Part shown: positions 28,035 to 54,714 of the stretch, in pieces
Layout of the letters: every line of letters starts with the position of its first letter
How positions within the stretch are numbered: the first letter of the stretch is position 1
Origin: Bilabrum cf. latius
Lineage: Eukaryota
Direction of reading: 5' to 3'
NCBI GenBank assembly: GCA_965178125.1
Contig: OZ237742.1
Span: 1,240,001 to 1,304,000, forward strand
Length of the DNA stretch: 64,000 nt
Notes under the pieces: generated by a model
Told to the model about the DNA's origin: nothing
What the model saw: the letters and a program-made list of their open reading frames with translations, nothing else
Databases searched by the model: none
Program-made: the position numbers and the translations under genes

Positions 28035-28132
28035 GTCCTAACTTGTGGTAAAATGGTCGGAAACGAATGTCGTGGATCCGGAGCAACAAGTGTACTAGGA
28101 ACAAGGCTCCACTGGCTCCAATTCGGACCAAA

Positions 28133-31100: not shown

Positions 31101-34100
31101 GCGATCAATCGGGTGCACAACGCCAGCAGCGCGCCGGATCAGGATAGGTTTCGGATGGTCGGCATGCCCTTGCGCCCTGCGATGCCGGCGTGCGTGCCTC
31201 CGGCCATTCAGTGGGCCTAGGCTGCGAGGACCACGTCCCGAGGGGGCAACTGGACCGCGGTACTCGATTCGATGAAGACGCGTCGCAGCTCTCTGGGCAC
31301 GTGGTACGCTCTGCTCGCAGTCTTGGCCTACTCAGACCAGAAACCTGACCTGGAGGCAATCGGACTTCGTGCCGCATGGCAGGAGGCTATGAGCGAGGAC
31401 GAGGAGGGACACAGCGGCCGGGAGGGCGCTGCAACTACTGGTCAGAGCGGCCAAGGTGAGCCTCTTCGGGACTGCAAGAAAGATGAGAACGCAGTGGCGC
31501 TAACACGAGGTTCCATCCAAGCATCTCAATCATCAGCGAGCGTGCTCGTGTACGGCAGCGACGCGTGGATGGCGCAACACACGGGCTCGCTGCCTTGGAC
31601 ACTCGCCGAGATCGGTCTTCCAGCACCGAACGAAATGGCTTCAGCGGACTCGAGCTGCTGGGGAGATGGATGCAGGGCACTGCCTGCCCCCCACGATGAA
31701 CCTGGCGCCGACGACTTGATCACGGCGGACGAATGGCGCTGGGTCCGCAGGTCGCCGTCCTCTCAGTATCTGCAGGACGTCCTGTGGTACTGGCGCGCGA
31801 TGTGGAACGAACCCGACAGGGCATGGTTCCTCCGCCGAGACGAATCCACAGAGGTGCCCAGAGAGCACGACTGCAGAGCCGTAGTCATGCGCAAAGGCAG
31901 CGCAGTGGCAGCGGGCCCGGCAGACTCAGAGCCTTTGACCAGCCTGGAGGTGACCCCAGCGGGCGGCGTGGCTAGTCCAGCTCTTTCCTAGCCATCTATG
32001 GGGCTCCCTGCCGCATCGGTCAATGTTAAGCATCAAGTCACCGGGCTAGCGGTACGATCGCAGGCGTACCATGCTGATGGCGAGACTGAGGAGGAGGAGG
32101 GTCGGTCGAGGCTTGACACGGTGGTGCCAATGCCGCCTCCCATCGGCGATTCCTGGGCGCTGGCTCGAGTCCTGGCCGCCAACTACGTGCCGAGCGAGGG
32201 TTTATTGCAGTGCGATGCACCCGGTGTGTTCGCTGCAGCGGACAGCTTCCCATTCGTCCAAGCTGGCAACAAGATCGCTGCCAATGGAGCTAGAGCTCGA
32301 CTGCAGCACAGTTTGCCCCGGTGGTGCTACTCTCGGGTCCATGGGCCAAGCAGCAACACGACTAGTACAAACAAGGACAGCGCACGCCCTTTGAATTGGT
32401 CGTATAACGTGAGTACACCAGATGGTGTTGTGCCGCTGCCATTGTATGTGGATCCGTGGCCTCCGCTGTCCAGACGAGGCCGCCTGGTACTGCGGCAGCT
32501 GTGGCCGGGCAGAGACACTGGGGCTGTCCGTGAGGCAAGTGCCGGCGGGGTGCACGCCAAGGATCAAGATGAAGCTGACGCTGGAATATCCAAAGCAAAA
32601 GCGCCGAAATTCTCGATGCTGGCTGGCCGCCTGCTGTCCCGCAAGCAGATGGAGGGGACAGGCGAGGCAGAGTCAGGAGCGGATGCCAAAGATACCCGGA
32701 GTGGGGTGCGAGCTGCCTGTCTGGCCACATGGGCATGGACGCAAGACCCATCGGACAGGGACACGTACTGCCGCCAGTATGCGAGGGTGCATGCCGCTGT
32801 AAATCGTGGCGCGTTCGACGCACATACTCCGGCGCGTGTCGGTGTCTATGGTGGTGGCGTGCATCCCAAAGCATCCGGCGAATCTGACGGCCTACCCCAT
32901 GCTGAATTTTCACATGGCAAGCCGGCGCTAGACCCCCAACTGCACGACTAGCACTCCCGGTTCCTGGCTTGGATAAACGCCGTGACCTCAGCAGACTCCT
33001 CACCTGGATCCGAGCCCGCGCCATAGATGGACCTGCTGCTGCCTGCCGCAGATACAGGGTGCAACAGCGAGCCAGACACGAGCGAGAAGTATTCCAACGA
33101 CAGATCAAGGCGCGACGACGATGCTGATGACGACGACGAGGTGTGCCTCAAGTGGGGCAGGGTGAGGCTCACTGCCGTCCATCTGCAGGCGCTGCAAACA
33201 CTCCGATCCAGACCCCTGGCCATGGAGGCTTTGAATCTGACGCAGGTTCTGCAGCTGCCGATGCTTCCTGTGTCTGGGCAAAGGATGCCAGACGGGTCCA
33301 TCGTGGTAACGGAGGACGCCGCGGCTGCATGGCTCGGCGGACCTGCTGAGACTGGCTTCGGCGGGAACGAGGAGGGCCGCGGTCCGTCACCGAAACATGA
33401 CAGCCACGCCGACCTGGCAGCGCCTCTCGTCACCCTGGTGCCTGACACGGGCCTGGCGCTGGGATACGACCTGGCCTTGGCAGCCGCAGACCGCGCTCGT
33501 CACAATGAAGTCAAAGCGATGTAGGATGGGGCCGTGGAGTCACAGCCCGCGGCTGCAGGTGCCAGGTAGAGCCCCAGCGGCTGGTCCATCTCAGATGGCT
33601 CATCTTCTCTGCGTTATGCCAGTGAGCAGAGGCTGCGGTCCCTTGCAGAGCCGGGGGAGTGGAGCCTAGAGTCTCTAAAGGTGCTGCACCCATCGGGAGC
33701 AGCAGGGTTGGGCGCCAATGAGGGCGGCCGTGCCACTGGCGGCAGGGGTGGGTAGGCGGGCCTTCACGGGGGTGTCCAAACTGGCGGCCACTCTGCCCGT
33801 GTGGGGGACCAAGAGCCGACCGACCAGGCCCTGGCAATGCAGCAGCTGGCCGACAGAGGGGATGCCAGAGCGATGGCGTGGCTTGGCGGGGCGCACTACT
33901 ACGGCACCGGGGGCCTCCCTGTGAACCGCTGGGCCTCGCTGCGGTTCTTCCGGGGGGCCGCGCTCAGAGGCAACGGAGAGGGGATGTTCAACCTCGCCGC
34001 GACCGTGATGAACGTTCGTCGGGAGGTTCGCCAGCGGCTGGCGGCCCGGCACGGGGTGCCTCATCGCCGCGGTGCCGACCTGCTGCTGTGGTGGCGGCGC

Positions 34101-37100
34101 GACGGCAACATGACCTCGCTCTCGGGCCACTTCAAGGGAGGCCGCGGAGGCAACGGTGCGCGGAGGAGGGCAAGGCTGAGTGGAGGCCTGGCCTCTCCCG
34201 CGGCCCACGCGAGTGAGAGCTGGCTGAGGAACAAGGTGGCCGGCATGCAGGCAATGGCCGGGGACTGGGCCGAGAATGCGGCCCCGGTCAAGTTCGGGCA
34301 GCAGTCCGCTGGTGACGGCGTTGCAAGCGGTGAAAGTGGCGGGCATGACTTGTGGGAGGAAGATGACCAGCCGCTGTACTGGTTCGAGCGGGCCGCGGCA
34401 GAGGGATTTGGACCGGCTGCGTAGGGGCTGGCTCATGCGTACCTGAAGGGAGTTGCGCCTGGAGGCAGCGAGGATGATGGCGATGGGGCTGCTGGCGAAG
34501 AGATGGACCACGAGGGTGGTCAATTCGATGATGATGCGTAGGATGACGCGTATGACGAGTGGGACGCGCGGGACTGGTCGCCTGACGATGAGCAAGACCA
34601 GGACCTGGACGGGGATGAGGATGGAGACGATGGGGATGAAGATCATGAGGCCATGCAAGGGGTTGGGGCTCATGTCGCTGGTGCTTATGGAGGTGCACCA
34701 GCCCCGGGTGGTCGCGGGCATGGGCACCGAGGGGCAGGCGATGGTGCAGCGTTGGGGCCAGGCGTACACCCGCAGAATGCCGCAGCAGTGAACGGTGGCG
34801 AAGATGTTCATGGCAATCGAGGGCGTGACCCCGCGCAGGGCGGTAACCACGAACCCGATCCTCAAGAGCCCGGTCATGCACACGAGCCTCAATAGCCCGA
34901 TGAGGCTCGAGGCATGCCGAGGCATGGCATCGAGGCCAGGAGGAGGAGGCAGGCCCAGCGAGGCATGGAGACCGTGTCCCAGCTCACCCGAAATCAAAAA
35001 AGGGCCAATAGGTCCCGGCGGTTTCGGTTGAGCAAGAACGAGACGAGGGCGGTCGAGCTTTTGGAAACGGCGTGCAGTAGCGGGGCAGCGTCTGGATGCG
35101 CCGAGCTGAGCAGTCTGCTTGTTCGGGGGTTCAGGCCGCCAGCCGCGGACGTTCCTAGGATGGTGCAGGCGGCAGCGCAGCGCCTGAGAACAAAGGTGCG
35201 CGAGACTGGAGGCGTCGGTCTCCTCTCTCTCCTTGAAGATCTGGAGAGGGCAGGGGCAGCCAACGGACTGGCTGGCCAGGCCATGGACCGTGCCGTGCTG
35301 CTGCACCCGCGACTGCAATCGCTGCAGGACGAGCCAGCTCTTGCGATGGACGGGCAGCGGTGGGAGTCTCCGAATGCGGCGCATGAGGCGCTGGTGCGGG
35401 CTGCTGGGGCGGGGCACAGGGATGCGAGGCTGGCGCTGGCCCGTGGGCTGGGTCGATCGCATGGCCGGTATGCTCGCGCTTGGGGCAGGCAGGTGGGAGC
35501 CTGGGCCCAGGTTGCACTAGGGCGCGCTGGGGATGCATTGTTGCATGGTGCTGGGAATACGGGGACAGATGAAGGCTCTGGCGGTGTGGCGGTGCCTGTG
35601 AGTCATCGCATTGCGGTGCCATCTATGCTGGGGGCGCCGTGGGCGCTTCCTGCTACTCCGGGCTTGCCCGCGCCCCGACTCGCCAGTGCCAGCACAACCA
35701 GCTGCGCTGACATCCAGCTAGCGAGCCGCACCGGCAGCGGTCCCAAAACCTGTCCTCAGTCTAGCCCCGATGCAGCGACGTGGCACGCCCTGTTGGCGTG
35801 GCTCGGCATCGAGCAGCAGCCAACTTGGCGACCCAGCGACAGCAGCACGAGCCGCGAATTTCCAAAGCAAAACACGGATGGAGCTGGCCCCTCCAGACCG
35901 GTGCCGTTTGCCGTGCACCTGGGGGTAGACGACTCATCTCACTCGTCACACGCGCGTGGCCAGTGGGGCAGCCTTGGTCTGCACCTGATTTCAGGCGGGG
36001 AGACCCTTCTGTCCCCGAATCAGAGATTCGGTGCTGATGCGCTGGATGCGTTTGGACGTGGTGAGCTGCCAGGCGCCGAGGCAGGCCGAGCGTGGGGGCA
36101 TGACCTCTGGCTTGGGGCCCGGGTAGCCGCCGAAGCAGCGGCAGCGGCGTTCAATCAGGACTCGAGGGGGCCGAGTGAAGGCCTGGTTGCTGTCCTTGGG
36201 AAGGGAGGCAAGCCCGATCGCGACGTGGCGGAGCGGCCGCATCTGCGTCCAGGGTCACCACAAGCTACCGGAATGTGGGTTCCTCATGGACTTGACGTCA
36301 GACTCGCCGCAGAGTGGGCCGTGCTCGGCGCTGAGACGAGCGTGCCAGAGTACCTTGCACAGGCGGGCATCGATGCGTTGAGGGGCACTGGGCCCTGGGG
36401 CACCCTGGGGACCCTGTGCAGGGATGCGGTCCGTGGTGTGACGAGTGATGGAGAGGGCGGGTCTGACGATGTAGGCAGAGCTGTGAAGGCGGCCTGCTAC
36501 CCTGCCAGGCCCTGTGATGCCGCATCTCACGGCGATGGACATGCTACTGTGACCGACTCAGGTGCGCATGGCGATGGGCAACCGACTCCGGCTATCTCAA
36601 TGGGGGTACGGGAGGACGCACTGCCCCTGTTTCAACTCGGTGCCTCCCTGGGTAGTCAGACAGCCGCAGCGAATGGGGCTTTCGTGGCTGAAGCGATGGC
36701 CAGGAGCACTGCATCGAGGCAGGTGTGCGTGGCCCGCAGCATGTTTGGTGGTGTGTTGCCAGGGTTCAACTCTCTACGCAATGGGGCGCACCCAGTTGCA
36801 AACAACACTGCAGCAGAACGGGTGTCTTGGGTCCATCCAGTCACCCAGGACCAAGCCGTGCATCTCGCGCTTGTCGAGCAGGATGAGAGGCGAGAGGCCG
36901 CCTGGAGGTTGGGGCTGGGCGCGGCGGACCCCGAGGGTGGTGACTCGAATCCGTCCGAGTCAGAGAGCGACAGGTCGGGGGCTCACTCGTCACACAGAGG
37001 TGGGATGTTTGGTGACGATGGAGACGGCCCCAAAACTCCGAGCGCACCAGGAAGCGATCGGGCGGGCGGTACTGCAGGGTCAGCAACTGGAGCGGCCCCG

Positions 37101-40037
37101 GGAGGTCGCGCGGGTGCTGGTGCCGGCATTGCTCTCGAACAAGAGACTACGCAAGCGGATCGCATGTTTTTCGGATCCCGTGAGGGCATTGATTCCGAAA
37201 CAGGGGGTTTACTAGACGGAGGGAGGCTTGGGGCCTCTGCTTCACCTAGCGGGGCTGCAGGGGGTGGCAGGGGAGGAGGACACGCGCGAGGTAGGGGAGG
37301 TCGCCGTAGGGTCGGCACACGAGCTTCCATGCGGGCGTCGCTTGACCTGGATGAGTCCGGGAGGCCGAAGGACCTTGTCTGGCTCATGCGGAGGATGGGC
37401 CTGCTGAACAACCCGGTGTCTGCGCTGGTGCACCGCGCGGGGGATAGCATTCAGAGGATGCTGGGGCGGGCGGTGCGCGGCGCGGATGCTGCTGGGGCCC
37501 AGCTGGCGGCTGGTGCTGAATCGATCTGGCAGAGCACGGCCCGAATGTTCGCGAAGCTCGGCAGCGTGTTGAATCTCGGCATTGGTTCGAGCTCAGACCG
37601 GCCGAGCTACAACTAGGCTGGTCAACAACAAGAACCTGGGAACGGGGCAGGTCCTAGCGATACAGGAAGGATTGTTGCTGAAGATAAGGTCGACTGGCGG
37701 TCAATTGCAACCGCTGGTGCTCTGCAACTGTACTCCACTTGCAATCGAGGACGGCTGTGGGTGGATGGCCGCTGCGCCAATGAGGCACATCGACTTGCTG
37801 CGTGGGCCACAGCCGCTGGAATCCAGCAGGAGAGCTCGAACAGCAGACATTTGTATAGAAATGGCAGTGCCTGGACCAGAATTGCAAGGCGAGAACTGGC
37901 AATTGCAGCAGCTCGCGGCTCCTCGCCGGAGGCACTGGTGTCTCTCGCGATGGGAGAATATGTATCGTTCCATGCTCTCATTGATGGCTCTGGCTCCGGT
38001 GCCGCGTCCCATGGGGCAGGACTCAGGCCTCGTGCGCCTCACACATCCCATGAGAATCAATCGGGCCCTCCAGTGCTGCGCGACATGGTGGATGCCCTGT
38101 GCCTGCTGGTCAGGGACGCAGCCAGCCGGCACGTGGAGGAACATCTAGGGACCAAGAGTCCCGCGGAGAGCAAAAGAGCCGAGCGAAGGGCCGCGCGCAA
38201 CACGGATTCGACCAAGGAGTAGCATGAAGAAGTGGCCAAGTTGGAGGGGCTGCAGTCAATGCTTGCCACGTGCAGGGCACTGGAGCGGATGGTTCTGCCC
38301 CGCGGCACTAGGGCGTCGGAATACGGGGTGTTGCCGGCGAGCACGGATGTCGGTTCCAGCAGCATGCACATCTCACTGCTGGTGGCAGGTGCAGAGGCGT
38401 CGGTGGGCCGGCGGTTCCTCGGCCACGGCGGAAGGGGTACCCCAACACCCTTGCCAGCTGGCCTTGGCCGCATGTCTCCGCTCTCTCTGGTCGGCTGGAA
38501 CAGGACGCTCGCACTCAGGGTGCTTCACCTGAGCGAGTCAGCCGCACAGTCAACCGATCCGTGGGATGCATGGGCTGCGATTGGTCATGGGAAAAGCCCG
38601 CACGCAGCGCCATCGACACAACGCAATGACGAGCTGGTGCTGCACCTGCGCGAGGATAGAGCCGGACGGATGCCGGTGCTAGGCCTTGCTGCATGGGGAC
38701 TACTGCTGGGCGACCATCGCGATGGTGCTCAGAGCCGGGATCAAGAGGGTGTGAGAGGCTCGTTGCTGGCTGGGATGGTGGGGCCCCGGGAGGCAGAGAG
38801 GTTTGCAGCGTTGGCGCGCGCTGCTCGTGCGTCTGCAAGGGCTAGACGAGCCCATGGGCTGTTCCATGCGGATGGTCACGAGCCGCCAGGGCCCATCGCA
38901 GATGTGCTGGAGATGTCCCGCGATTGGTACAACGTAGTGCCAGAGGATGAGCCGAGCGAGTCTGAGCTTGGGCCTGGGGCTGGGACACGATCAACGAGCA
39001 GGCAGGGAAGGGGGAGCAGAAGGGGCCGGCGTGAGCTGGAGGCATTGAGGCATGGTCTAGATGCCTAGCGGTAGGGCAGGGGGGTATTGGGACGAGGCCG
39101 AGGAGGATAGCACGGGACTGTCTTGGGCAGCTGGATCCGGTATGGGGTCACAACCGGGCAGGGCGTGTATCGGGCGATGGGCCAGGCCTGGCAGTGGCTC
39201 GGTAGTGTTAGCTTGGGGTCCTTTTTATCGAGTGGAAGCAGTACCTTGCCTGGAGATGGGCGGGGCGTGGAAGACGTGACACCGCGGGAGTTGCTGGGTC
39301 GGCTTCCTGAAAGGCACCCGCTTCATGAGGGCGGCCCCATGGGCATGGCTAGGACGATTGCAGCGCTGCTGCGTGAGAGCGAAGGCTCAGGGAAATGCCA
39401 AGGACAGGGACAGGGCCAGGTTGATGGCAACCATGATCATGGGGATCAAAGTAGCCGCGATGATGCAGCTGTAAGGGTGCAGGCATAGCTTCCGTGCAAT
39501 TCGCTGGCCAAGGCACGAGAGGTGCTGCAGGAGGCGAGCCCAGCAGAGGGGCTGCTGCTGCACGCAGCGGCATAGGTGGTAGCAAGGCGTCAGGAGGCCA
39601 CGGAAGAATCAGAGGATAACGAGGCGCAGATCCGCTTGGCAGGACTGCTACTTGCGGATGGTGCTTTGGTCCAGTCCCATGCGGGTGCTGGAGATGATAT
39701 TCGTGCAGACGCCAATGGAGACGGTGCTGGTACTGGTGGGACGAAGAACAAGTATATGTCAGAAGGCCAAGGGCAGAGGCATGGGGCCCGCTCAGGCTAG
39801 CAGCAAACGACTGCACCACTAGCTAGGGCACCCTAGCGCCCACGCATGCACGGTGTGCTGGATGCAGTGCGAGTGCTGCTGATAGACCCAGGCTTTCTGT
39901 CGTCCCAAGCAGAGGTCGGACTGGCTGTACTGCTAGTCGCGCTGCTGTGCATGTTCTGGTACATGCGTGGCAGGGTTCGCGGCATGAGGGAGCAGTTGCG
40001 GCGGATGGGTGGGCAAGAGGCAGGTGCTGGGCACTAA
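28133..40037 (+). CDS. Giant type I membrane protein (~3937 aa): signal peptide, LamG/concanavalin-like domain, Sel1-like repeats, C-terminal TM (SEL1L3/Hrd3-like architecture)
   Basis: Exon 1 28133-28361 (signal peptide MKVRTYRAFIIAPWVAFIALLWLGSCVTA), intron 28362-28452 (GTAAGC...CAG), then one frame to TAA 40037 broken only by 25 TAGs (all gaps read by hand). LamG motifs SLSFWVWL and RWTHVAVV...LRLFVDG. Sel1 motifs LADRGDARAMAWLGGAHYYG, FFRGAALRGNGEGMFNLA, YWFERAAAEG. TM VGLAVLLVALLCMFWYM. Confidence 0.85.
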
Positions 40038-40506: not shown

Positions 40507-43500
40507 TTACACGTACGTCCCATACCCGCCTGCTGAAGATGTCTTTGCAGCACTGCCTCCCTCTTCATTAGTAGCGTCATGACCGGACTACCCTGTGCCG
40601 TACGCAGCGGCGTAAGGGTCTGTAGCAGCCCACCCGGACACCGCTGTCCCTGCCGCGGCGCCCCCTCCGCCAGCCACCGACAGGTTCCACGCCCCCGCAG
40701 GCGTTGTGGTGCCTCCACTGGACGCAGTTCCACCAGACGGCGAATCAATTGCATACTTGGCGGCATACGGGTCGGCACTTACAACAGCTCTGCCACCGTC
40801 GCGAGCAGCCACGTACGGGTTGACGAAGGCAGGTGCGCTATCCTCCCTGCCAGCACCCGTCACGCCACCAAGGTCCAGCTGCGTCACCTGCACACCGCCT
40901 GCAAAACCCTTCTTCTCGAGAAATGCCCTGTTTCCGGCACCAGACCTACGGGAGCTGAACCCCGAAGAGGGAGGAGGAGGAGGTGCACTCGGTACCGGAG
41001 CAGGCAGGCCGGAGGAGCGACCCGGCTGTCTGGCCAAGGGCACACGTCCACCTAGTGCAGGGGCGCTGGGTGCATGCCCCCTGCGCAGATTCTCGCCCGC
41101 GTCCCTTCTGTCTCGGGCAGGTGTGTCATCTGTACCCACCCTAGGTTCCAAGACACCTTGGCTCGCTCCATAGCGCAGAAGCCGCTGCCCGATTTCGGGC
41201 AGCTTTGATGCAAACGAGCTGTCAGGGTCTGCCATATCCCACATCATGTACACGCGATACGCCCCAGCAACCACCTGCAGACACAGGAGGGCCAGCGTGG
41301 CGTTGATGGCGAGCCAGCCGCCAGTTTGTACAACTACTCGCAGCAGCAACAGCAACGATGGAATTTCGAACACAGCAATTCGCAGCATCCCCACGCGAAA
41401 TACCAGCGAGCGAACCGTCTTCTCTTCTTTCCTCCGATCGGAGCCCAAAAATGCCGAATCTCCCCCCTACAGCCTCGCAGACTGCATACCCCACGACTCC
41501 ACCGCAAATGGCCACAGCCCCAGGCACCCCCCGCGGAGCCGACACTCCTCATCGTCTATGCAGCACGAGTCCGGAAGGGCATCGCAAATGACGCACCCCG
41601 CAACTACATTCAAGATGACGCCCAGTCCCATAACGACCAAGCCAAACGTTCCAGTACCGAGCAAAAATTCAAGACCGTCAATGGAGTACCTGGGGGCCAC
41701 GACCAGCTCCGACTGCGCCGCACCCACAGCCACGAGAACCCCCATCGACTGGAGAGGCGCCAGGCCCATGCAGCAGTACTGCCAACCATCTTCATCCTCT
41801 GGGGCACACTGGCTCACGGCAACCCCCACGATCAGTCCCGCAAGATTGAAGAAGCAGCCTATCCCCACGATGGCCGTCACCGTGATGACAAGAGCTTTTG
41901 CCCCCTGGATTCTGATCTGCATTAAGAACCCATCGCCATACGCGTCATCCGCAAAGTCATCATCCTTGCAGGTGGCCTGAATGCCGTTGAAATCGTGGTC
42001 GCAGTCGGTGGGAAGGCTCTCAAACACGCAGTTGTGGGGCTCATCTAGGGCGGGACAAGTCGGCCCTGTGATGGTAAAGGGGGCCTTGGTCACAACACGC
42101 ACGTTCGTCTCTGTATAGAGTTCCGTCCCGACGTATCCCATCTGGTCGCAGATCATGAAGCCAGCCTCCTCGTTGATTCGCGTGTGGTCGCACACAGGGC
42201 CATACGACCCGCCTGCTGCAGATGCCTCGAGGATCGTGTACTGGAATTGCCGGTGCATGTACGGCGGCGGTTTTAACCCCTGGACAACAAGCCGGAACTG
42301 GAGCTCCCGAAAGAGGAAACCCTCTGTGCTCTCGTCCGACGGCGGTGTAAAGTCCTACGTGGGCCTTGGGCTTCCTCTGGTGTAGGAGAAGTCCCCGCAG
42401 TCAACCCACACCCGCCTGTTGGACTCACAGGTTGCCGCGCCCTCTGCATCAACAGGAGCCGAAATCGTGCAGTCAGCGAGCGTGGTAGCACGAGGCTGGC
42501 ACTATAGCTGGCCCACTGTGAAGCGTTCCATCTCGTCGCGGCCTCTGTAGGAGCCAAACGTGGCCATCGGGTTGCGCTCTCCGAACCCCAGCAGATAGCA
42601 CACAGTGCGGGCGGCCTCAGCGTCGAAACCATTCGCGCACACGTAGCCCCATTCCGACTCGGACTTTGCCGGCGCTCTATCATCGTCTGCGTCCAGCTGC
42701 CTGGCACCTGCGTCCTGTGGGGCCTTGACCCTCGCCCTGAGGATCCCAGCCGAGAGACCTTCCTCCTCCTCAGGGCCGTACTTTTCTCTTTGCAGCGCAA
42801 AGGCGATGGGCTCTGCCGATTGCTCGGGAGGGCCCTCGTCACATAGCACATAAGCAGTACCTCCTCCAGTACAGGTCTGCGTACCCACAGTGGTGCTGCA
42901 GTCTTCCGGCCCATCCGGCTGCATGTTACAGCCCTCCACAAATACGCCGGAATGGGCATTGTACGACTCGAGCGGATACCTGGACCAGCCAATCGTGCGG
43001 TTGAAAAGCGGTGCTCCACCCACAGCCACGTTGCACAGCACGCTCGCGGTGTAGTGGTTGAACTACGAGCCGTAGCAGTACGGCAGGAACGGCTCGTCCT
43101 GACGGTCGCGGACGCCGAAGAAGCCGGAGCCCCCGGTCAGCACCTCGTCCTGGTGCGTGGTGGCAAGGTTGGGAAGCAAGGCGAACTCGATCACTTCGTT
43201 GACCTCCCGCCCTCGATCGACGGATCTCTGGCTGAAAGAGCCGCAGGAGGTGCCCAGGGCCCCGTTGCATCGCGTTGCAGTCGTGGTGTATGTGCACTGC
43301 GAGAGAGACTGCGCCCAGCTTGCGCAATCCAGGTCGGCCATACGGGGAACCACCGACGAGGACACACCGGTGGCAGAAGACCCTTTGGACCACGGCGTGT
43401 TCTAGCCGAAGCCAAGGGTGTAGCACACGAAATCCTGGTAGTCGATGCCGCCAAACAGGTTCCCGCACAGGTACCCAAACTGGCCACTGGCGGCCACGCC

Positions 43501-45594
43501 AGTCGTATCGCGAACCAGGATTGTTCCTCCAGACAACCCCTCGTCCTTAATGGGTTCCCGTTGCTGCGTGAAGGCGAACTCCCACCTCCCCGACTGCTCC
43601 CTGCCGTCGCACCGCAGGTACAGCCCCTGTCCAGACGTGCACCGCCGGGTGCGCTCAAAGCTGCAGTCCGACGACGAGGTCGCATTCGAAGGACATAAAA
43701 GCCGTCTGACGCGGTACGTCGGATCAGTGAACTCGATCAGCTGCCACATGATCTCGACCTGCGGGCCTGAATACCCCATCACGCCGCACGCTCCCACAGC
43801 TGTGCTCAGGTCGAATCCGTCCGCACAAAGGGGATGAAACTCGTTGCCGCTGCGGCTGCTGCTGCCAGCAGACCACGTGGCATTGCGAACTGCAAGGTAT
43901 CCCACGTTGCCTCGCGTAGGATCCCCGTCATGCAGGCTGATCAGGGAAAGCTCTAGGTCCCCACCCCAGTTGAGCTCCGGCGTGCATTGGATGGTTGCAA
44001 CCTGATCGGAGGAACAGCTCGACATTCTCGTGGCCTCGCAGTGGCCTTCATCTGCACCGCTGTCGCACCCGTCCACTTCGACCCAGCTGCTCACCGCAGC
44101 GGAACCGCCCGCGGCCACCCCACCCGTCCATCGAGCCCCAGCTCCTGTGGCCCCCGACTGCACGCACACATCGGCGGCGCTGGCCTGAGAAACACCAGAG
44201 CACACCGGCCGCCACCTGTCGCCTCTTGCCCCGATCTCTCGCGCAACCACCGCCCCCTCGTACACTGACCCGGTCGGCCGCAGCCCCAGATGCACAGCCC
44301 CTGGCCTCACGATACCCACCTCGACGACCAGACTCGTCGGCGGCGCCCCACATGACACCATCACGCCGTCGCTGCTCCCACACCGGGCCGTCCCAGACGC
44401 ATCCTGTCCATTCCACGCGCAATTGTACAGCCCGTCAGCACTGTCAGCGCACCTGAAACCGCTCATGGAGAAACCTCCAATGGCACCCGTGACCCCGCTC
44501 GTGAGGTCCACCGTCTGTCCAGTCCGCACCTCCAGGACCCTGCCCGCGTCCTCGCCGAACATATTCACGCACACTTCTTCTGCCTCGCTCTCCCCAAAGG
44601 AGTCAAAACGATCGCAGACGAAGCCACGTTCGCTGCCCCCTCCCTGCACCGCCAGCCGAGCCTGGCCACCTGCACCCGCTGCCACCCTGCCATCCCGTGC
44701 CACCAGCTCGAACTGCAGCCCCTGGTCTATCCCCACGCCGTCGCGGTCACAGTCAAGCAGGACCGACTTGCCCCCATCGCACTCGTCATCCAAGCGCTCG
44801 GTGCTGGCCCCGATCACCGTCCAGCTGCAGTCGTCCACCGGCAGCAGCCCCCCCCTGATGCCCTCCTCCAAGCCCCCCCTCTGCAGGAGCAATCCGGGCG
44901 AGCACGACAGGTCTTGCATTTCAAATCCTCTGCCTTCTGCTTCGCTTGAGCCCAGTGTGGTGCGGGACCACTCAAACCGAAAGCGGTCGGTGCGATACCC
45001 CATGGCGGTGCAGATGGCTCCCATGAGGTAGGCCTGCACCCCGACGTGGCACAGAGGCCGCCAGGGGTTGCTCTGGTCGGCCGTCACGCTCCGAAGGGAC
45101 ACTATGCCACTGCTACTATTGGCACCGATAGGATCTCCCTGTGAATCCGTTAGGGTGACGTGCAGAGCAGAAGATGATCCGGATGCATTGAGCGGTTGCT
45201 CACCGCAATTCAGCCACACACCACTCATTTCGTCGCATCCAGAAGCGTACACGCTGTAACCACAATCATTTAAATCGATGTCTCGGTGTGAGCACGCGTA
45301 GATCCGCCCAATCACCATGTCTCGCGCATTCAGGTCGATGGGGTAGCCGGAGCGGTAGCCCACCCCAAGCTTCGCAGGAGCCAGACCGAGATGTCGGCAC
45401 GCCGCGCTTGCAGTACTCCAAGCAAACGAATCATCACAAACATATCCATACGCCCCGTCCGAGACTTTCCCCAGCAAAATGCCCTCGGTAGAACCTGGGG
45501 GCAGCAATGCACCACTTGCAGACCCAAGCGCCACATCAATAGCCAGAACGCTTCTGACAAGGAAAGCAACGAACAAGAAAAAATCTGCGCGCAT
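40507..45594 (-). CDS. SRCR (scavenger receptor cysteine-rich)-like domain array fused to a multipass membrane region, ~1695 aa
   Basis: Signal peptide MRADFFLFVAFLVRSVLA at 45594. Repeated G.VCDD.F...A..VC..LG motifs (YGYVCDDSF, RGFVCDRF, FHPLCADGF, FGYLCGNLF, WGYVCANGF, YGPVCDHT). One frame with TAGs at 43402, 43063, 42502, 42355, 41467 and 40588, ending in TAA 40507. Five to six hydrophobic segments near the C-terminus. Confidence 0.85.
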
Positions 45595-45921
45595 ATAGGA
45601 GTGACTAGCCGGACAAGAATGTCCAAAGCGATTCGGAACAAACGAGTGATCCGAAAGAAAAAGTTGAAGAGAAAATATGTCAAAAAGCACACACGTCAAA
45701 AAGCACACACTTTCCACCCCGCCGGCGAGGGGAGCTCGCGCTGGATAGGTCGAAGGGATTAACAGGCTCACGCCGCAAAGTATGCAAGCTTCCAGTGGGC
45801 CACGCCTCCGTGGAGGAGCGGCGCTGCTTGCAGCACACTTGACCTCCAGCTCCTGCTACGGCCGTTCCCTGCGCGCTTGATGCTCCCATCTGTTTCTGTA
45901 GCCCACACACGTTGAGCCTCA

Positions 45922-48900
45922 GAAAATACAGAAATACAGAAATACATTGTTGGGTAAAGATTCCACAAGCACCCAGATGCACCGTTGCCCCCGAAGGAGT
46001 TCGAGTGATCACCTGAATCCAGAGGAGTCCTCAAACAAGGACTACAAGACCCCCGACCCTTTCAGGCCAAAGGCCCCCCAATCTCAGCCTACACCGCCGA
46101 GTCCCCTTTATTCGCCATCAATGTGGTCCCCCACAAGCCCTCAGCCTGATGCCTTCACAAGGAGAAAGCATACAGGTGCGGAGCATGTGCCCGGCACAAA
46201 GCGCGGTCCAGTCCCACATCAGGGTCCCCTGCCGGGACCCACCATTTCCTCCTCCATGACCGTCTCTGCGTCTCACGATCCTTCAGAGAGGCTAGCATGC
46301 ACGCGCTCATGCCTTTGGCCCATTGCCTCTCTATGTCCCTTAGCAAGCCGTGGGGCTTAAACATCCGTCGCTGTAGCCGAGCGTTCGCATTGGTTGCCGC
46401 TATCAGCTCTTGCGTGGCCGTGGCGGCAAGAGCAGCCGCCGCATCGCCTCGCATCCACTGCCTGCACGTCAGCTACTCCTGCTAGCGCAGCTGGTTCCTG
46501 ATCACCTGCACCACTCGGTTGGCCAGCTCCTTGACAGCTGTCCGTTCCGATGACCGCGCAATCGTACGCTCTATCCGAGTGAGTGCGTCTTCGACGATTG
46601 GCTTGGCCCTGCTGGTGCGCTCCAGCTTCTCGTCCCAAGGGTCCTGAGCGAGAGCTGTCTTCGCCCATGCTTTCCGGAGGGAGGCAGGGGACCTCCCTCT
46701 ATTCTGATCCGCATCATCGGGTTGCCACGGTCTCGTTCCGGCATGATGGTCATGCTCGGCCCGCTCCATCTGCTCTACCGCGGTGCCCATCACTTGAAGG
46801 TTGGGCGTGCCCTGTTGCGGGTATTGTCCAGCTCGGATGCGCAGAATTCGTCTTCCTTGGTGGCCGTATTCCTGCACCACCGCTGCTGTTGGCATGGCTC
46901 CTGGTCCGAAGGCATACCGTCCCTTCGTTGCGTACCGGTTAAGCATGACCACTCCGAGCGCAGCTCTCTCCCGGTCCCAATCCGACAGTGCCGGATCGTG
47001 CGAGCATCCCAGGCTCAGGCTTGTGAACGATCGGTCAGCAGCTCCGGATTTGGATTTCCTCCACTTTGTGACTTTTTTTGCAGTCTCCTGGCATCCCAGC
47101 CAGTCCTTCGCGTCATCGATCCGGTGGGTCCCCCCTGCCATCTTGATCCTGAATCCCAGTGCCAGCGCGGCCCCGAGTGGGCCTGTCTGTACTGGTGGTC
47201 CCTGCAGGAATCGGCCCTGGTGGATGAACCTGGCCGCAACATCAAGGCCCTTCTTCGAGGGACACTCGATCAGGTCCAGCAGGCCCATAGCAACACGCCC
47301 TGCTGCCGATGCCGTCAGCAGCTCAGTGTCCATCGCAAGGTTTGGCACGTATCGACCGCCCATGGTGAAGGGCCTTACCTGTGTCGATCCGCTGACAATC
47401 ATCCAGCGCGTATCCAGCAGGAATTTGTCCAGCATCTTGAGCACTTCCAGGTTCAGTTCCATCCCGTAGAAAACTTGGGAACCATATCCTAATCCTGACA
47501 AGGTGTCCCATCCTGTTGCACATGCCGCTGCCTCTGCTCCGTAGAATGCACTCGTGATTGCTCCTGCATGGAGCAGCTGGGCGTGCAGGGAGACCGCCCA
47601 GTTGCCGTTCACCGCCGCTCGTGTGATGTCCCTGGCCGCCCGGTACGCCATCGCAATCCTCCTGCGTACGTGGGGTGCCATATCAATTACCCAGATGTCT
47701 CTCGCCTGCGTCAGCCCAGCTACTTCATCTGGGCTGATCCGTACTGGTTGGGTCGAAATGAGTAGACCGAGGTACAGGTAGGATGAGGCAAGTGGAATGG
47801 TCCACTCCCCATCCGTCTCTCCCGCGTCCGCTGCTCTGCATGCGACGCCCTCTGGCATGTCCCCAGGAATTGAGTCCCGAGCGTAGCCAAAGGCCATGAT
47901 CGCTGTCTTGGTTCCCTGGCCCGATGCTGTCAGGGGCTTGATTCCCAGCTACATGCCCGCAAGTGCAAACAGGCTCTTGACTAGCTTCATGACCGCCACT
48001 GCTTCGTTCCAGTTCGACGTCAGTGCCACGTAGTCGTCTGCGTACCCGACTTGTCCACATTCAACGTATCGTCCGGTGTCGGTCACGATCCTTTGATGGT
48101 GCCCGTGCTGGAGCCTCTCTTTCCGCAGCGTTTCCAGGAGAACCCCCATCAGTACCAGGAAGATGGTGGGAGACAGAATCTCGCCCTAGGGGGTGCCCGC
48201 CGTCTTCTGCACTCTGGTAGAGACCCTCCTGGTGAGTGGGTCTCGAACGCGGATGGCCACCTGCATGCGGGCCATGAGAAAGCGGACCGTCTGGCGTCCC
48301 CATCCTTGCTCCGTCATGATGGCCTCGATGATGTTCAACTTGCAACTGTCAAATGCTCCTTTGATGTCAAAGAATACCAGAAAACCTCCAGCACCCCTTC
48401 GTTGGGTAATCCATTCCATCACCGCTGAGTAGGCCTGCTGGCAGTTCTTGCCGATGCGAAATCCGGCCTAATCCTGGCCGAAGAGTCCGTGGTTTTCGCA
48501 GTACCACATGACCTTCTGGTTTGCGATGGTGCTTACGACCTTCGAGAGAGCCGAGGTCCAGCATATTGGCCTGAATTCGTCGACTCCTGTGACTCCTGTG
48601 CCCTGCTTGCGCTTGGAGACCGGCCGCATGAACCCCTCCTGAAAGGCCTCAGGCTGAATCCCCGAGAAGAGTGTGAGATTATAAATGGCCCTGAGGAGGT
48701 CCAACAGAGCGTCACTTCGCCGCAGACACCCGTCCTCCTCAGAGCATGGCTAGCATTTGGTCAGCAATTCCGCCCTGATCCCATCAGGTCCCACAGCTTT
48801 GTTGTGCTTGAGCTTGTCCAGTGCTTGATCCACCTCTGCGTTCGACCTGCAGAATAGGTTGAGCGGTGTCGCTGCCCTGGGCATGTGCGGCGCAATCCTG

Positions 48901-50257
48901 GCCATAAATCCGCCCACATCCGCACTTCCATTCCCACCTGCGTGAGAGAGCTGCTGTGCGTGTGCCTCTAGGATATCCTCGACGGCCGTAAGCACCTCTC
49001 CGCCTAGGTTCGTGATTGGTTCCAGTCCTGGTGCAGCTCGTTGCCTTCTAGAGATTGCATCAGCGATCTATCGGTGGGCTTCCCTCGGACTTGCTGTTCC
49101 CAGCATGTTCCGCAGTGCGTGGCCCGTCCTGCGTGCCCCTCGCTCGGTGGTCTCGAAGACAGCCCGTCGATCATGGTCCAGGTTGGCAAGGAGCATCGTC
49201 CAGTACTCCTGTCCCTCATGGGCCTACTGGTTCACCTCTGTGCTCCCCCAGAGTGTTGCCTGCATCCGTCCATCTAGCCCCCGCTGTCGCCCTTCGAGGC
49301 GCAGGCTGGCTCGGCGATGTGCAGCCAAGCATGTTCTGGCCTCTGAAAGAGCTTGTTCCGTGGTTGGTCCCGCGATAAGGGCCTTGAGGCTGGCATGGGC
49401 TTTTCCCCACGTTTCAGCCCATCTCGTCCGTGCCGTCCAGGTCCTGCGGTGGCGCTTGCGTGACGCTTCCACGTGCCTGGCCTGGCCGGTGTTTGCCATT
49501 TGTCGGCCTGTAACAGTCTCGGCTGCTGCCGTGAAACATCCTTGCAGAAGCAGTTTGACGGAGGACACGGCCTGCGTAACCGCTTGCCCTGCAGCCTCTC
49601 GGTCAGCCGAGGTTCCCGTCGAGCTTTTGAGGTCGCGAATTGCGTCGAGCACACAATGAGTGATGTCGCGGACTGCACTTGTAGCCTACCCGAATTCCTT
49701 GACGTAATAGTCCCAAACCAGGCGTTCTTGCTGCACATGCATGTCGGACACCCGTGAGTACGCTGCCCTGAAGGGGGCGTCATCGTCCTGCTCCGTTGTT
49801 GCTGGGACTGCAGTTGCTCGCGTTGCCGGGTCCTCCACTTCTGGGACTGTGACCAGCAGGTCTGCAATCACCCCCGTGTGGTCTGAATATGTGCCTGGCT
49901 CTTGAGCCACTTCACTGGACACTAGCTGCAGCTGCGCAGAAGTGGAGATGCAGATGGCATCCAGTGTGTTGCCTCCTCTGTGCGTAGGCCCGCCCCCTGC
50001 AGGTGCTCGGTACATGTCGATCATGCCCATGTCGTTCTCCAGATACCAGCCTCCCCTGATGTTGAAGTTGCGTGTGAAAGCTGCCTTTTGCGTGGCGGCC
50101 ACCATGGCGCTCTCCGAAACCCAGAGCTGAGTCTGGTCAGCCATCGGGTCACGCCCTTCGCCCTGCAGGAAAGAGAATACAAATATTTGAGTCAAAGCAT
50201 ACACTAGTAGACTACCCAAACCGGGGGTAATCGCATTGGGCAGGTCAGCAAACTCAC
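45922..50257 (-). mobile_element. Non-LTR (LINE-like) retroelement or derived gene, single ORF; 5' boundary uncertain
   Basis: Partial endonuclease + RT ORF, structured 3' UTR and (TGTATTTC)x3 tail at 45922-45946. No target-site duplication identified. Confidence 0.7.
46155..50144 (-). CDS. Non-LTR reverse transcriptase with partial APE-type endonuclease, 1329 aa, intact under TAG=Gln
   Basis: Eight listed ORFs lie in one frame joined by 9 TAGs (49686, 49224, 49068, 48750, 48468, 48186, 47949, 46482, 46473), ending in TGA. Motifs PTHRGGNTLD...SDH (APE C-half), KAVGPDGI, FRPI, (TAG)AGFR, FFDIKGAFDS, GTP(TAG)GEILSP, YADD, YLYLG. Confidence 0.92.
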
Positions 50258-50670
50258 ACCACAAGCTGGGCTGCTCCTCGGTGGGGGGGGCTGCGCTGCT
50301 CGCTATCACACCATTTTTCTATCACTGCTTTCCAACACCCGTGCCTCAGCCGGCCAAAAAAACAAAAAACTCGGGAGAGCGCCCCGGTCCGAGCCCAACT
50401 TCCGGCTCAGGTGCCAAGCTGCACCCGAGCCTAGAAGTCCGCTCTGGCGCGATCTCTGAAATAGGGGCAAACCCAGTTTAAACATTAAAATATTCGGCTT
50501 GGGCAAAGTTGCCTCGTGCCGAGCCAAACTTACGGCTCGGGCACGGCCGCCGTCTGCCACAGCCCAAAGTTCCGCTGCGGCGCCGCGGCGCGCGCCGCCG
50601 GAGTCACCATTCAGCTGACGGCCCACCCACTTGTCTCGAACCGATTTCTGCTGTCTAAATAAGCCAACAG

Positions 50671-53600
50671 ATGAAGCTTTTGCAATTATCACTGCTAGGT
50701 GCTGCGATGTGCGTCTGCCGCGCCGACTGGATCGTGCCTACGGAAGCAAGCTCTGAAAGCTACGAAGGAGCTCACGACGGAAGCACGCTCCTGCGGGCCA
50801 AATACGACTTTAACACTGCTCCAACTGCCAATTACGACTTTAGATCGCTCATTTAGGTAGGTGAAGAGGCCGTGGTGGGGTGTATCGAGACGAACATGGG
50901 CAGGGAGGTTGCCATTGCGAGGCTGGCAGCCAACGGCTCGGACACTGCCCGCCGCTTGAGCTTTACTGGGCCTGCCGAGGAAACTGGAACCCTCTTTGAA
51001 GTTCCAACTGACTACTTTCCCGGTGAATCCTCCGGCTGCGTCGTTACGGACTCGTTTATCGACATTGGCCAAGGCCTCGTCGAGTTCGTTTCAACCGGAG
51101 AGTTTGGCGTCCCGTCAACGAACGGAATCCCCGATTTCCGGCGGAATCGCTGGGCCGTCCTGAACATTACTTCTGGAGAGTCCCATCTCATCGGCCTGGA
51201 CAACGCCATGGGCGAAGGGACGGGCCTGGCGGCCTTTGACGCCGACGACGGGCAAGACTACAGAGTCGCTCACCCAAAGTCCAACTCCCACGTCTCGCTC
51301 ATGTCCGGCGCTGTGCGCTGCGTTGGCGTGCAGAGAGTCGACAACAGACTAACGAGTGTCAATTCCAGCTTTTTTTGCTGGGACACGCGCCTGCCCGCCG
51401 GGCAGCAGGTGACCGAGGTGGCTGGGGTGAGCTTCGACGCCTTCGCCCAGACTTGGGCATGGGCCGACCGATACCTCGTGGTGTTCGGCTGGGACGCCAA
51501 CGACGACGCTGAGCTCTACTGGGTGGACCTTCAGACTCCGTCTGCCAGTCTATCATCCTCCAAGCTGTACGACAACCCGAACGGAGCGAGTTTCATGCCA
51601 TCGCGGGGCGCGAGCGTGCTCCTGCTGAGCGACGACGTGCTGTGCTGGCTGGGCGACACCGGTGCAATCGCCAACAACAATGCCAGAGACAGCTATATGC
51701 ACTGCCACATTCTCTCTCAGAGTACCACTCGAGTAGTGGGTGAGGCCTACGGCAGCATCAGCACGATCATCAAGGCTGCACTATCTGACGGCGTTCTGTA
51801 CTTCATGGGAGGCAACACGAACATAATCAGGGCTTGGGACCTCAGCTCGGGCGTGCTCACCAAGTTTGAAGACGTTCGAACCACCTGCACTGGCTATTCT
51901 TACTTCATTTACCCTCTGTCGGACGCCCTTGGGGTGGTATTCAGCTACCAAGAGCAGCAGCGGTCCAATGCCGAAGTGGCCGTACGATGGAAGGTAGGGA
52001 CCACCCCAGTGGAGCTAGACGGCCTGCCCCTCAGCGCCAACCCCCGCTCGCAAGACACGATGGGCACCATGACAGACAGTGGTGACGTCACACCATGGAG
52101 CGCCAACTACGGAACATACCTGTTCAAGAACCTCGGAAAGCCCAACAACCCTGCCGTGCCTGTCGCCGTCGACAGGACCACCGGTACGGCCAGGTTCGTC
52201 GAGGGCACCGTCACGGGCAACGCCGCCCAGGCTAACTACGTCAACGTGAAGAAGATCGCGCAGGTGCAGTACGAAGGTGCGGGTGGAGCAGCCGCTAACG
52301 GAATCCTCTTCTACTGGAACACGGACTCGAGCAGGACCAATTTCGGGGGCAGCTGGCACGAAATCTACTTCTGGGGCGGAGACCCGGCCGTCGCACCCTT
52401 CCCTGTGCTCGACCCCGCTGCAAGTGATAGGTACGCCAGCCTAGCCAACGTTCCGTTCTTTGTGGTGACCGACACCAGCGGAGCAGTCCCCGTGTCTTCC
52501 CTAGCGCTCACGCCACAGCTCTTCGATGACAACGGATACCAAAGGCTGATCGCCTTCCGCCCCGCACTCGCGATTGCGGCCGAGGCGAGGGTGCCGCAGG
52601 AGGAGAAGGTCTACGAGCCCGCTGCTGCGTTTAGCGATGCAGGCTCCATCGGTGGTAGCCAGTTCACGCGCAGCAATGACTCCGCCCTCTGCATGGCCTA
52701 CAGGAACGAGTCCGGCCATCACGACTTCGCGTGCATCGTGGAGGGCCCCCGCAGGCCCGATTCTGCAGTGAGGATTGAGCTGGCCACGGCGATGCCCATC
52801 CACCCTCTCATGACCTCCACCTCCAGCAAGCTGGGCAAGTTCCTGACAGGAAAGGAGCTCACTGAAACGTTCCAGCGGGTGCAACGGCACAGGATGGGCC
52901 AGGGTGTGGGAGCCATACTGTTCGGGCAAGAAGACGGCAACGGTGATGAGCAGATATTCTACTTTGACGGACACCACGCCCCTGTTCTTGTCCAGCACGC
53001 GCAGGACCCAATGGCCCTGAATGATGACAAGGAGCTTGCGGTTGCTGGCGATGGCAGATACGTTCTGTTCCATGTAGAGAGGGATGGCGACAAGGGGTTT
53101 CCAGCCGTCATGGATCTGGGCAACGACGCCACCGTGACGTTTCCCGATGATGGATCCGTATTTGGTGCGGAGAGAGACTCCATGCTGTACAGCAGGGTCA
53201 GCGTGGTGTATGACCGGTATTTTGTGGACATCATGCAGACCGACGGGGAGAGCAACGGCGCCGACCTCGTGGTGTGGGACACTCAAAACTTGGCCGCCGG
53301 TCCCCAGATCTAGGCAGGGGCATCGACGGACATTGGTAACCTGGTGAATGACGACGCTCCGCCGGAAATGTGGCACGCAACTCCCATCATGGGGGGCAGC
53401 ACGGGCGAGCTGCTGTTTGGGATCGTGCACGAGGAAGGCGACGAAGACGATGACACTATAGCAGCGACGTACTTTGCTGGTCGCGTGAAGGCTGCTCAAT
53501 TCGACTCCAACGGCGCCCTGGAGGACATTATTGAGTTTCCGTACAGATTCGCTGGGACAAGCTCTGAGGAGTGGTACCAGGGTGAGGATGGCATGGGGGT

Positions 53601-54714
53601 GGAATCCAGCACCACAGCTGGTGAGGTGGGTGTCCTTTCGGTAGTGGCGCAGGGGCAGCAGGACTGGCAGCAGGCACCGACAGACCGCGCATCTGGAGAC
53701 ACCCTCTCCGTCCGCCTGTGGAACACGAGGGGCCTTGACGAGGAGATTGTGTCTCTGGGCGCCGTGTCGGAGCTGGTGCGCCACGCTTACGTGCTGAACG
53801 GGAGCGAGGTCCTGCTGATCTCGTTCACAGACCTGGACGACGAAGGGCAGGACGAGCTGATCCGGGTGGACATAGCGAACGGCGGGTAGCAGACCCGCAT
53901 CACCTGCCCCAGCACCTCGCTGCCGTTCCTTTCGGGGCCCAAGATGAACCGGGTCGGGAACGAAGGAGTATGCTGGGTGCCCGCTGCAGCCGAGTACAAC
54001 GAAATTGACCAGCACCTGGTGTGCTACTTCAAGGGCAGGGACGCGTGTGACATCTTTGACTTCGCCAGCACAGAGTCCATCGATGGGTCGCAGCCCTTCG
54101 GGACCATCCCTGTGGCGGACCCTGATGACGTCACCTTTGCGATGGTGACCCTCGCAAATGAACCCAGGATGCTGATGGAGCCGGTGGTCATGGCAGTGGT
54201 GCCCCCAGTGCCCGTGGCACTGCCTTCCCCGACCCCCAGCACCACAGCTAGCCCTACCCCCAGCACCAGCGCTAGCCCGACCCCCAGCACCACAGCTAGC
54301 CCGACCCCCAGCACCACAGCTAGCCCGACCCCCAGCACCACAGCTAGCCCTACCCCCAGCACCAGCGCTAGCCCGACCCCCAGCACCTCGTCGGCAGACA
54401 CTGGGGGTGCAGTCACCCAGCCGTCTCCCAGCTCTACAGCCACCAACGGAACGGTCGGGGACCTACTCACTCAGGACACCACAGTCGAGGACGACGACAG
54501 CCTGGGAATTGGTACTGTCGTTGGGATTGCGATTGGTTCTGCCATCCTATCGGCCATCGTGACGGGTATGTGCTGTCTGTTTGGCATGTGTTCGTGCGGG
54601 CGCACCCGCTCCACGAAGGAGAAGGAGAATGAGAAGGACTTGGGGAGGGCGGTCGACGTTGGGCCTCAAGCAAAGGCGAGCACAGGGCAGCCAGCGGGGG
54701 CAGAGGCTGTGTGA
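50671..54714 (+). CDS. Type I cell-surface protein, 1347 aa: signal peptide, beta-rich repeat ectodomain (ELWxxDGT-like), mucin-like PTS stalk, TM helix, Cys-rich juxtamembrane tail
   Basis: ORFs 50671-50856, 50872-53313, 53344-53889 and 53944-54714 share one frame joined by three TAGs; ends in TGA. Recurrent DAELYWVD / WHEIYFWGG / DEQIFYFDG / GADLVVWD / QDELIRVD motifs. TM IGTVVGIAIGSAILSAIVTGMCCLF. Confidence 0.85.
54226..54387 (+). repeat. Coding 24-bp tandem repeat (SPTPSTTA / SPTPSTSA, ~6.5 units)
   Basis: AGCCCGACCCCCAGCACCACAGCT units visible directly. Confidence 0.95.

Follow-up and report, generated by a model that had tools for sequence, protein, structure and literature searches.

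Between positions 46,155 and 50,144 of the 64,000-nucleotide stretch analysed here (the window; contig OZ237742.1 of Bilabrum cf. latius) lies a long reading frame of a retroelement, which is interrupted by TAG codons. Is this a dead element, an intact one in a genome where TAG is not a stop, or only a part of one, and what does TAG mean in it? The original prediction, made from the letters of the window, held that the element only appears dead, that it is intact, and that it is locked into the recoded genome of its host. Our results lead to a different view of the copy and to the same view of the code. Very probably the locus holds a young copy, truncated at its 5' end, of a family of long interspersed nuclear elements (LINEs) that is multi-copy and was recently active, and the family has long evolved in a host that reads TAG as glutamine (Gln) and uses TAA and TGA as stops.

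The frame is on the minus strand, a detail absent from the original prediction. When TAG is taken as a sense codon, it runs from the ATG at 50,144 to 46,158 over 1329 codons, is followed by TGA (46155-46157) and contains no TGA, no TAA and no frameshift. The open reading frame (ORF) of 1329 amino acids that had been predicted under TAG=Gln was thus found as described. Extended from stop to stop (minus strand, 46155..50321) the frame has 1388 codons; its translation was named P0001, and all residue and codon numbers of the element given below are positions in this 1388-residue reading. Internal stops were absent from the element frame (0 TGA, 0 TAA), whereas the other two minus-strand frames contained 27-28 TGA and 3-4 TAA each, a difference far greater than chance would give. 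There are ten in-frame TAGs in the stop-to-stop frame, nine of them in the 1329-codon frame starting at the ATG. Under the standard code these nine would divide the 1329 codons into ten pieces (152, 153, 51, 105, 93, 93, 78, 488, 2 and 105 amino acids), not into the eight fragments that had been counted. A plus-strand reading of 46155-50144 was rejected, as it is crowded with stops.

The element belongs to a multi-copy non-LTR (LINE) retrotransposon family. Searched with TAG as sense, P0001 gave a Pfam match to the reverse transcriptase (RT) domain RVT_1 (E=4.7e-17), and the YADD catalytic motif was intact, as had been stated. The two catalytic aspartates were conserved in most aligned homologues (D762 in 63/65, D763 in 60/65). 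The only solved structures matched were those of R2 (E=3.4e-6) and LINE-1 ORF2p (E about 2e-4), both through the RT part only. The 31 relatives found mostly combine an endonuclease (PF03372), placed upstream of the RT, with PF00078 and are about 27% identical to the element; beyond the element's own small group, identity to any database LINE is about 27%. The endonuclease of the element itself was far less evident. The proposed search for Exo_endo_phos gave no Pfam match to P0001 even at E<=10. From 11 relatives an endonuclease profile with 226 positions was built. When six sequences were searched, only its positions 184-223 found a match (residues 112-153; E=0.006), and its positions 1-183 had no match in the six frames of 49,500-51,500. 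D121 and H148 fall in invariant columns of a 12-sequence MAFFT alignment. The partial profile match, together with the invariant Asp and the SDH-type His, fits a truncated domain of the apurinic/apyrimidinic endonuclease (APE) type; the whole domain was seen in no copy. No CCHC-like cysteine motif was visible in the C-terminal 400 residues. A search of the whole window for direct and inverted repeats (seed 14, minimum 40 nt) found none with an arm in 45.5-50.8 kb; the element is thus free of long terminal repeats. The 3' untranslated region (UTR) had no significant overall fold (z=-1.05) and no Rfam match at E<=0.1. The 8-nt repeat at its end resembles the microsatellite-like tails of CR1-type elements.

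Positions 43,000-53,000 were compared with contigs assembled from four public runs. In run X2 the flanks were covered by contigs with 0 differences at a word depth of 48-49. Inside the element the depth was 643-676 at 48.7-50.0 kb and 790-1420 at 47.0-48.7 kb, and it rose further toward the 3' end, to 2780-4090 at 46.3-47.0 kb and to 7600-10600 at 45.7-46.3 kb. The same gradient was seen in run X7, with 0-3.2 in the flank bins and about 50 to 576 in the element; here two flank contigs with 0 differences had a depth of 3.6-3.9. What is seen here is the gradient that 5' truncation produces in a multi-copy LINE family, contig depth being only a proxy for copy number. Two contig joints, 49422->45920 and 47007->45934, are other truncated copies (truncation points at 49,422 and 47,007) that abut the 3' end of another copy.

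The ends of the present copy could be placed from the same contigs. In X2 the contigs of the unique flanks end at 45,949 and begin at 50,020. As these limits are set by 31-letter words touching unique DNA, the junctions lie near 45,920 and 50,049/50,050. Contigs X5 rec16 and X7 rec24 match the element to 50,049 and then extend for 143 and 808 letters that are unlike the window. Since other copies run on past 50,049 and the unique-flank contigs stop where they do, the element comprises 45,921-50,049. The hexamer GAGGCT, the sole 6-mer common to both junction regions, abuts both of these contig-defined boundaries and is a candidate target-site duplication. A long open frame with conserved catalytic residues, situated between two host genes, might also be expected of a single-locus host gene that derives from a reverse transcriptase and was domesticated to serve the cell. 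Such an origin is highly improbable in view of a word depth that exceeds the flank level 13-fold to more than 150-fold (X2 and X7, the runs with flank cover), the 3' gradient, the truncated copies at other loci, the tail repeat and the candidate duplication; the frame also lacks its own start codon.

As a separate observation, the X2 word depth reached 68,484 at 45,948, as against about 48 in the single-copy flanks, and was far above that of the rest of the element. The extreme depth of the last ~30 nt (45,921-45,956) suggests either very many truncated copies of extremely small length or a dependent element, similar to short interspersed nuclear elements (SINEs), with the same tail.

The position of the 5' junction decides how much of the 1329-codon frame is element. 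Codons 1-91 of the frame, with the ATG at 50,144 among them, belong to the flank and are spanned by a single-copy contig (X2 rec7, 50,020-50,567, depth 47.9). That the flank is open in this frame is unremarkable, because TGA/TAA-free runs of at least 90 codons hold 69% of all codons in the six frames of this GC-rich window. An alternative account of the first 90 residues, as a decayed N-terminus of the endonuclease with 'RNFN' in place of 'GDFN' in the MAFFT alignment, was rejected, since the contigs show flank. About three quarters of the endonuclease domain and everything upstream of it are missing from this copy. Unlike an intact element, it has no 5' UTR, no whole endonuclease and no complete ORF that begins with a start codon of the element. 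Truncated at about 50,049 and deprived of the N-terminal part of the endonuclease, the copy is 5'-truncated and hence non-autonomous.

The copy is also very young. Seven listed high-depth contigs of run X5 tile 46,381-50,049 with 0-2 differences each, seven in about 3.7 kb, which puts the copy at about 0.2% from the dominant, high-depth sequence of the family. At such a low divergence the open frame needs no selection on this copy. It is consequently very unlikely that the locus is an intact autonomous retroelement with a complete ORF from the ATG at 50,144 that has been kept open by selection on this copy. Its 1329 codons open under TAG=Gln, its undamaged YADD and the lack of frameshifts are what such an element would show, but its ATG belongs to single-copy flank, other copies leave the window inside the claimed ORF and continue for at least 808 letters, only the last ~40/226 endonuclease profile positions are present, and the 0.2% divergence explains the open frame without selection. 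The description of the element as intact had to be given up.

Selection became visible when the comparison was extended from this copy to the family. Contigs of a divergent subfamily were ~14% apart from the element (76/559, 94/691 and 234/1646 letters differ). Of the 30 differences listed between 47,877 and 48,165 against a ~14% divergent contig, 22 were at third codon positions (binomial p=9e-6). The 27 changed codons listed comprised 22 synonymous and 5 non-synonymous ones, one change being TAG<->CAG at codon 791. The rough ratio of non-synonymous to synonymous changes (pN/pS) between the subfamilies, from these listed differences, was at most 0.12. These figures support the view that the family has been under purifying selection in a code with TAG=Gln. 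Long purifying selection in this code, as originally proposed for the element, may therefore be upheld for the family; for the present copy, 0.2% divergence suffices.

The distribution of stop codons in the window points to a change in the meaning of TAG alone. Its ten long ORFs contain 64 in-frame TAG, 0 internal TGA and 0 internal TAA; the nine of them that are host ORFs (15,400 codons) account for 54 of the TAGs. The eight complete long frames, including that of the element, terminate with TGA (six) or TAA (two). Out of frame, TGA is 2-9 times commoner than TAG. TAG is thus read as sense across the window and not only in the element; it alone is reassigned, and TAA and TGA terminate. Were the element instead a decaying pseudogene in a standard-code genome, its TAGs would be nonsense mutations or sites of occasional read-through; this accords with the ten TAGs in the stop-to-stop frame and with a public gene caller having taken TAGs as stops (protein P0033, see below). 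Decay should, however, also have added TGA, TAA and frameshifts, none of which occurs in the 1388 codons in spite of the higher frequency of TGA out of frame, and the nine neighbouring host ORFs have the same TAG-only pattern. At two of the TAG positions, furthermore, the share of homologues with Gln exceeds 96%, and TAG alternates with CAG. A pseudogene of this kind is barely credible.

These two positions, whose conservation was counted among 148 homologues of an exhaustive search, carry the assignment of TAG to Gln. Q618 (..QD-Q-AGFR..) is Gln in 137/142 aligned homologues and Q712 (..GTP-Q-GE..) in 142/143; both columns are invariant (12/12) in the 12-sequence alignment, and in the element both codons are TAG. 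For the ten remaining RT-core Gln residues conservation is no more than 3-35% of the homologues, and it is indeed at the two most conserved RT glutamines that TAG is found, as had been noticed from the sequence. At codon 791 the element has TAG and the divergent subfamily CAG, a difference seen in contigs of all four runs. Taken together, the data support the interpretation that TAG is a sense codon meaning Gln and that TAA and TGA have stayed stops. A reading of TAG as another amino acid (Glu or Leu, for instance, which it encodes in certain other lineages) or as an ambiguous codon finds a point in its favour in a tandem host paralogue, where TAG (15,447) faces GAG (Glu). It is nevertheless very unlikely: the GAG case comes down to one G<->T difference within a stretch of poly-Glu, in a copy that is possibly decaying, and against it stand the TAGs in two near-invariant Gln columns and the CAG of the sister subfamily.

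TAG accounts for 12.5% of the Gln codons of the element and 8.8% of those of the host ORFs (0-14% per gene), which places the element within the host range. At 12.5% usage the chance that both conserved Gln codons are TAG is about 0.016 (calculated post hoc and by hand). We read this as coincidence and not as selection for a 'lock'.

The exhaustive search returned 12,693 RT homologues (E<=0.001), of which only six were clearly closer to the element (42-54% identity), all of them fragments of 101-410 amino acids. In the four that span the G-x-P-Q-G motif (P0154, P0156, P0160 and P0161) it contains an ordinary Gln. According to the alignment, judged partly by eye where MAFFT misplaced tails, P0158 and P0192 stop just before positions that are Gln in the element, and P0154 and P0160 start with Met shortly past the position of Q618. 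Such ends fit cutting at TAG codons by a gene caller using the standard code. The same treatment was met by a very close relative: P0033, a public protein of 317 amino acids, is identical to residues 963-1279 at 314/317 positions and ends exactly before TAG codon 1280. In this respect the expectation that standard pipelines would misread the element is supported: gene calling under the standard code does break it up.

Concerning the source of these proteins, it was observed that P0154 (the RT fragment, 49% identical) and P0033 (the C-terminal fragment, 99% identical) share a source, and that for each of them the longest contig given is 10,228 bp in length. The two are possibly on one contig; if so, one genome contains two anciently diverged lineages of this LINE group.

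Most of these observations can be accommodated in the following scheme. The ORF of the family would encode an APE-type endonuclease followed by the reverse transcriptase, and the element ends in a short 8-nt tandem repeat. The present copy would have been inserted by target-primed reverse transcription that halted early, the way in which LINE copies without a 5' end usually arise. Its frame would be open for lack of time to break and not through selection on the copy; selection would act on active master copies at other genomic loci, presumably translated by the TAG=Gln machinery of the host. As a result of this translation CAG->TAG changes would be silent in the master copies and could accumulate to about the host level, seen here as 12.5% of Gln codons. 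As a by-product, any cell with the standard code would break the ORF of the family at nine places.

Several points weigh against the view of the locus as a young truncated copy of a TAG-decoded LINE family. The comparison was made with assembled contigs, not with reads, and contigs of other organisms may contribute to their depth. Summed contig depth is not a copy number, and for this reason the copy numbers, roughly 14 for the 5' part and more than 150 for the 3' end, are only estimates. No full-length copy was seen among the contigs, and the complete architecture of the family (a whole endonuclease, any ORF1) and its present activity are properties that we infer. GAGGCT is a candidate target-site duplication of only 6 bp. 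The variants listed were 40 of 403, so that the count of synonymous and non-synonymous changes is a sample. The assignment of TAG to Gln comes from three sites, all in the element: the host tandem paralogue provides one alignable site, the TAG facing GAG, which is uninformative on the meaning of TAG, and no tRNA gene was found within the window. Finally, two contig joints, 45,916->50,061 and 45,835->50,069, have no precise explanation. An empty-site allele was considered for them and rejected: with the GAGGCT duplication it should skip 4,133 letters, and the skips observed were 4,144 and 4,233; in X7, moreover, the joint contig had a depth of 21 as against about 3 in the flank. These joints may be uninterrupted paralogues of another repeat.

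How far the element is locked into its host can be judged from the same data. In a standard-code host, translation would be blocked by nine premature stops, the first of which precedes the RT domain. That a code can act as a barrier is an established concept, and LINEs in a variant nuclear code have already been described in ciliates (PMC5405496). For the family, being locked in follows logically, but the same is expected of any resident gene of a recoded genome. It is no evidence of selection for the lock, and the present copy is immobile in any host.

The coordinates of the features are collected in Table 1.

Table 1. Features of the LINE copy, its flanks and example host ORFs (positions in the window; codon and residue numbers as in P0001)
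Feature	Position	Strand	Basis or remark
Element, 5'-truncated LINE copy, 4,129 bp	45921..50049	-	contig junctions, depth
Element-derived part of the ORF	46155..50048	-	1297 codons + TGA stop (46155-46157), 9 in-frame TAG
Flanking DNA in frame by chance, outside the element	50050..50321	-	includes ATG 50144-50142
APE-type endonuclease, C-terminal remnant, residues 92-155	49857..50048	-	..LDAI.. and ..SDH.. motifs
Reverse transcriptase domain RVT_1, residues 580-792	47946..48584	-	also matched by the solved R2 and LINE-1 ORF2 proteins
YADD catalytic motif, residues 760-763	48033..48044	-	includes D762 and D763
TAG codon 618, Gln of Q-x-G-F-R motif	48468..48470	-	conserved column
TAG codon 712, Gln of G-x-P-Q-G motif	48186..48188	-	conserved column
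TAG codon 791	47949..47951	-	CAG in divergent subfamily; variant 47951 A>G on + strand
TAG codons 212 (49686-49688), 366 (49224-49226), 418 (49068-49070)	within 46473..49688	-	
TAG codons 524 (48750-48752), 1280 (46482-46484), 1283 (46473-46475)	within 46473..49688	-	
3' UTR, 234 nt	45921..46154	-	
3' terminal tail, 8-nt unit x 2.9 (TGTATTTC on the element's strand)	45924..45946	-	100% matches
GAGGCT, candidate target-site duplication, 3' side	45915..45920	-	abuts element boundary
GAGGCT, candidate target-site duplication, 5' side	50048..50053	-	last 2 nt overlap the element's first bases
Example host ORF with TAG as sense	28164-40037	+	
Example host ORF with TAG as sense	3-8876	-	
Example host ORF with TAG as sense	40507-45918	-	

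Within the window no other copy of the element was found: tblastn returned the element only, and the pattern of its 3' end, with up to 3 mismatches, matched once. A scan of JGI metagenome contigs with a protein pattern produced 28 matches to the pattern, none of them a relative, and an exact 26-nt pattern of the 3' end gave 0 matches.

The element occupies what was, before the insertion, an intergenic space of roughly 950 bp. A large membrane protein with an SRCR domain is encoded on the same strand (40,507-45,918, minus), and the element lies 326 bp upstream of its first Met; the Met of a divergently encoded secreted or membrane protein with PTPSTTAS repeats (50,659-54,714, plus) is 621 bp away. 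Being located between these two genes, the element could affect either promoter. The flank just upstream of the in-frame ATG contains an intron-like stretch with the order GT, polypyrimidine tract, AG (50,165-50,215, minus strand), which could be assigned to no gene. Further upstream, a second repeat was recognized at 50,350-50,680 by its depth (336 vs 48 in X2, 125 vs about 3 in X7); an opposite-strand joint at 50,520/50,552 and loose ends at 50,424-50,534 were also seen there. Insertion of the LINE may have taken place next to this repeat or within it, and the joints 45,916->50,061 and 45,835->50,069 may represent paralogues of the repeat that are not interrupted.

The GC content of the window is 58-72% per 2-kb interval. 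The STT3 protein of the host is about 60% identical to stramenopile proteins, and in a single-gene tree of STT3 the host was placed beside a branch containing Blastocystis. Judged by this one gene, the host appears stramenopile-like. No case of UAG reassignment in stramenopiles was found in the literature, supplements being outside the scope of the search.

The STT3 oligosaccharyltransferase ORF (22,737-25,142, plus strand) contains no TAG and has a GC content at third codon positions (GC3) of 0.91; the most conserved and GC3-rich gene of the window thus avoids TAG. It begins at profile position 120/405, which implies at least one upstream exon or intron. Two tandem segmental duplications were noted among the host sequences. 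One, at 13,758-17,178 (period about 1.72 kb, 98% identity over 1,726 bp), has doubled part of a DFRP_C-domain gene, and one of its copies has three TAGs, among them the one that faces GAG in the other copy. The second is at 25,001-28,044 (period about 2.05 kb, 94-99% identity).

With respect to annotation, the standard code leaves the element and each of the long host genes in its surroundings either split or called a pseudogene. Two TAGs at near-universal RT glutamines and the TAG<->CAG exchange form a self-contained piece of evidence for TAG=Gln with neither a tRNA nor an eRF1 gene in view. The family is a recently active one that is fully equilibrated to a TAG-only reassignment outside the ciliates. 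It is possible, if doubtful, that a deep-branching, GC-rich, stramenopile-like host with a TAG-only to Gln code has so far gone without description in print and that this LINE is part of a small clade which diversified entirely inside recoded hosts. In that case LINE ORFs broken at Gln positions could be an inexpensive means of spotting eukaryotes with a recoded TAG that have gone unnoticed in metagenomes, and the family would illustrate how a code can confine a mobile element in nature. The more valuable lead would be the host code itself, if it is indeed undescribed for the lineage, together with the small clade of fragmented relatives.

In its structure the copy resembles the truncated copies of LINE-1 and CR1/L2-type elements, with which it shares the excess of 3' copies, the truncation inside ORF2 and, as a candidate, a short flanking duplication. 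It is also similar to young dead-on-arrival LINE copies in having a frame that is open without selection on the copy.

The code has counterparts as well. UAG is read as Gln and UAA as stop in Iotanema spirale, Protocruzia tuzeti and two phyllopharyngean ciliate lineages (PMC11687900), and the window shares with them the in-frame TAGs and the use of TGA and TAA as terminators. None of these UAG-only to Gln taxa is a stramenopile. In recoded E. coli it was shown experimentally that a difference in code blocks mobile elements (PMC6207430, PMC12269064). The principle would be the same here, as a codon of the ORF that is a stop or has no meaning in another host prevents expression there. The E. coli code was engineered and its effect tested, whereas here the difference would be a natural by-product and the isolation of the family is what we infer from it.

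The closest parallel that unites element and code is found in a ciliate. The Paramecium nuclear code reads TAA and TAG as Gln. From the Paramecium germline 38 consensus LINEs have been described, with an ORF2 containing APE and RT and with 3' repeats of a few nt (PMC5405496). The family studied here is similar to them in the probable combination of APE and RT, in the short 3' tandem repeats and in having a host that reads standard stops as Gln. It differs from them in that only TAG is reassigned and TAA is a stop, and in that the host is no ciliate but GC-rich and stramenopile-like.

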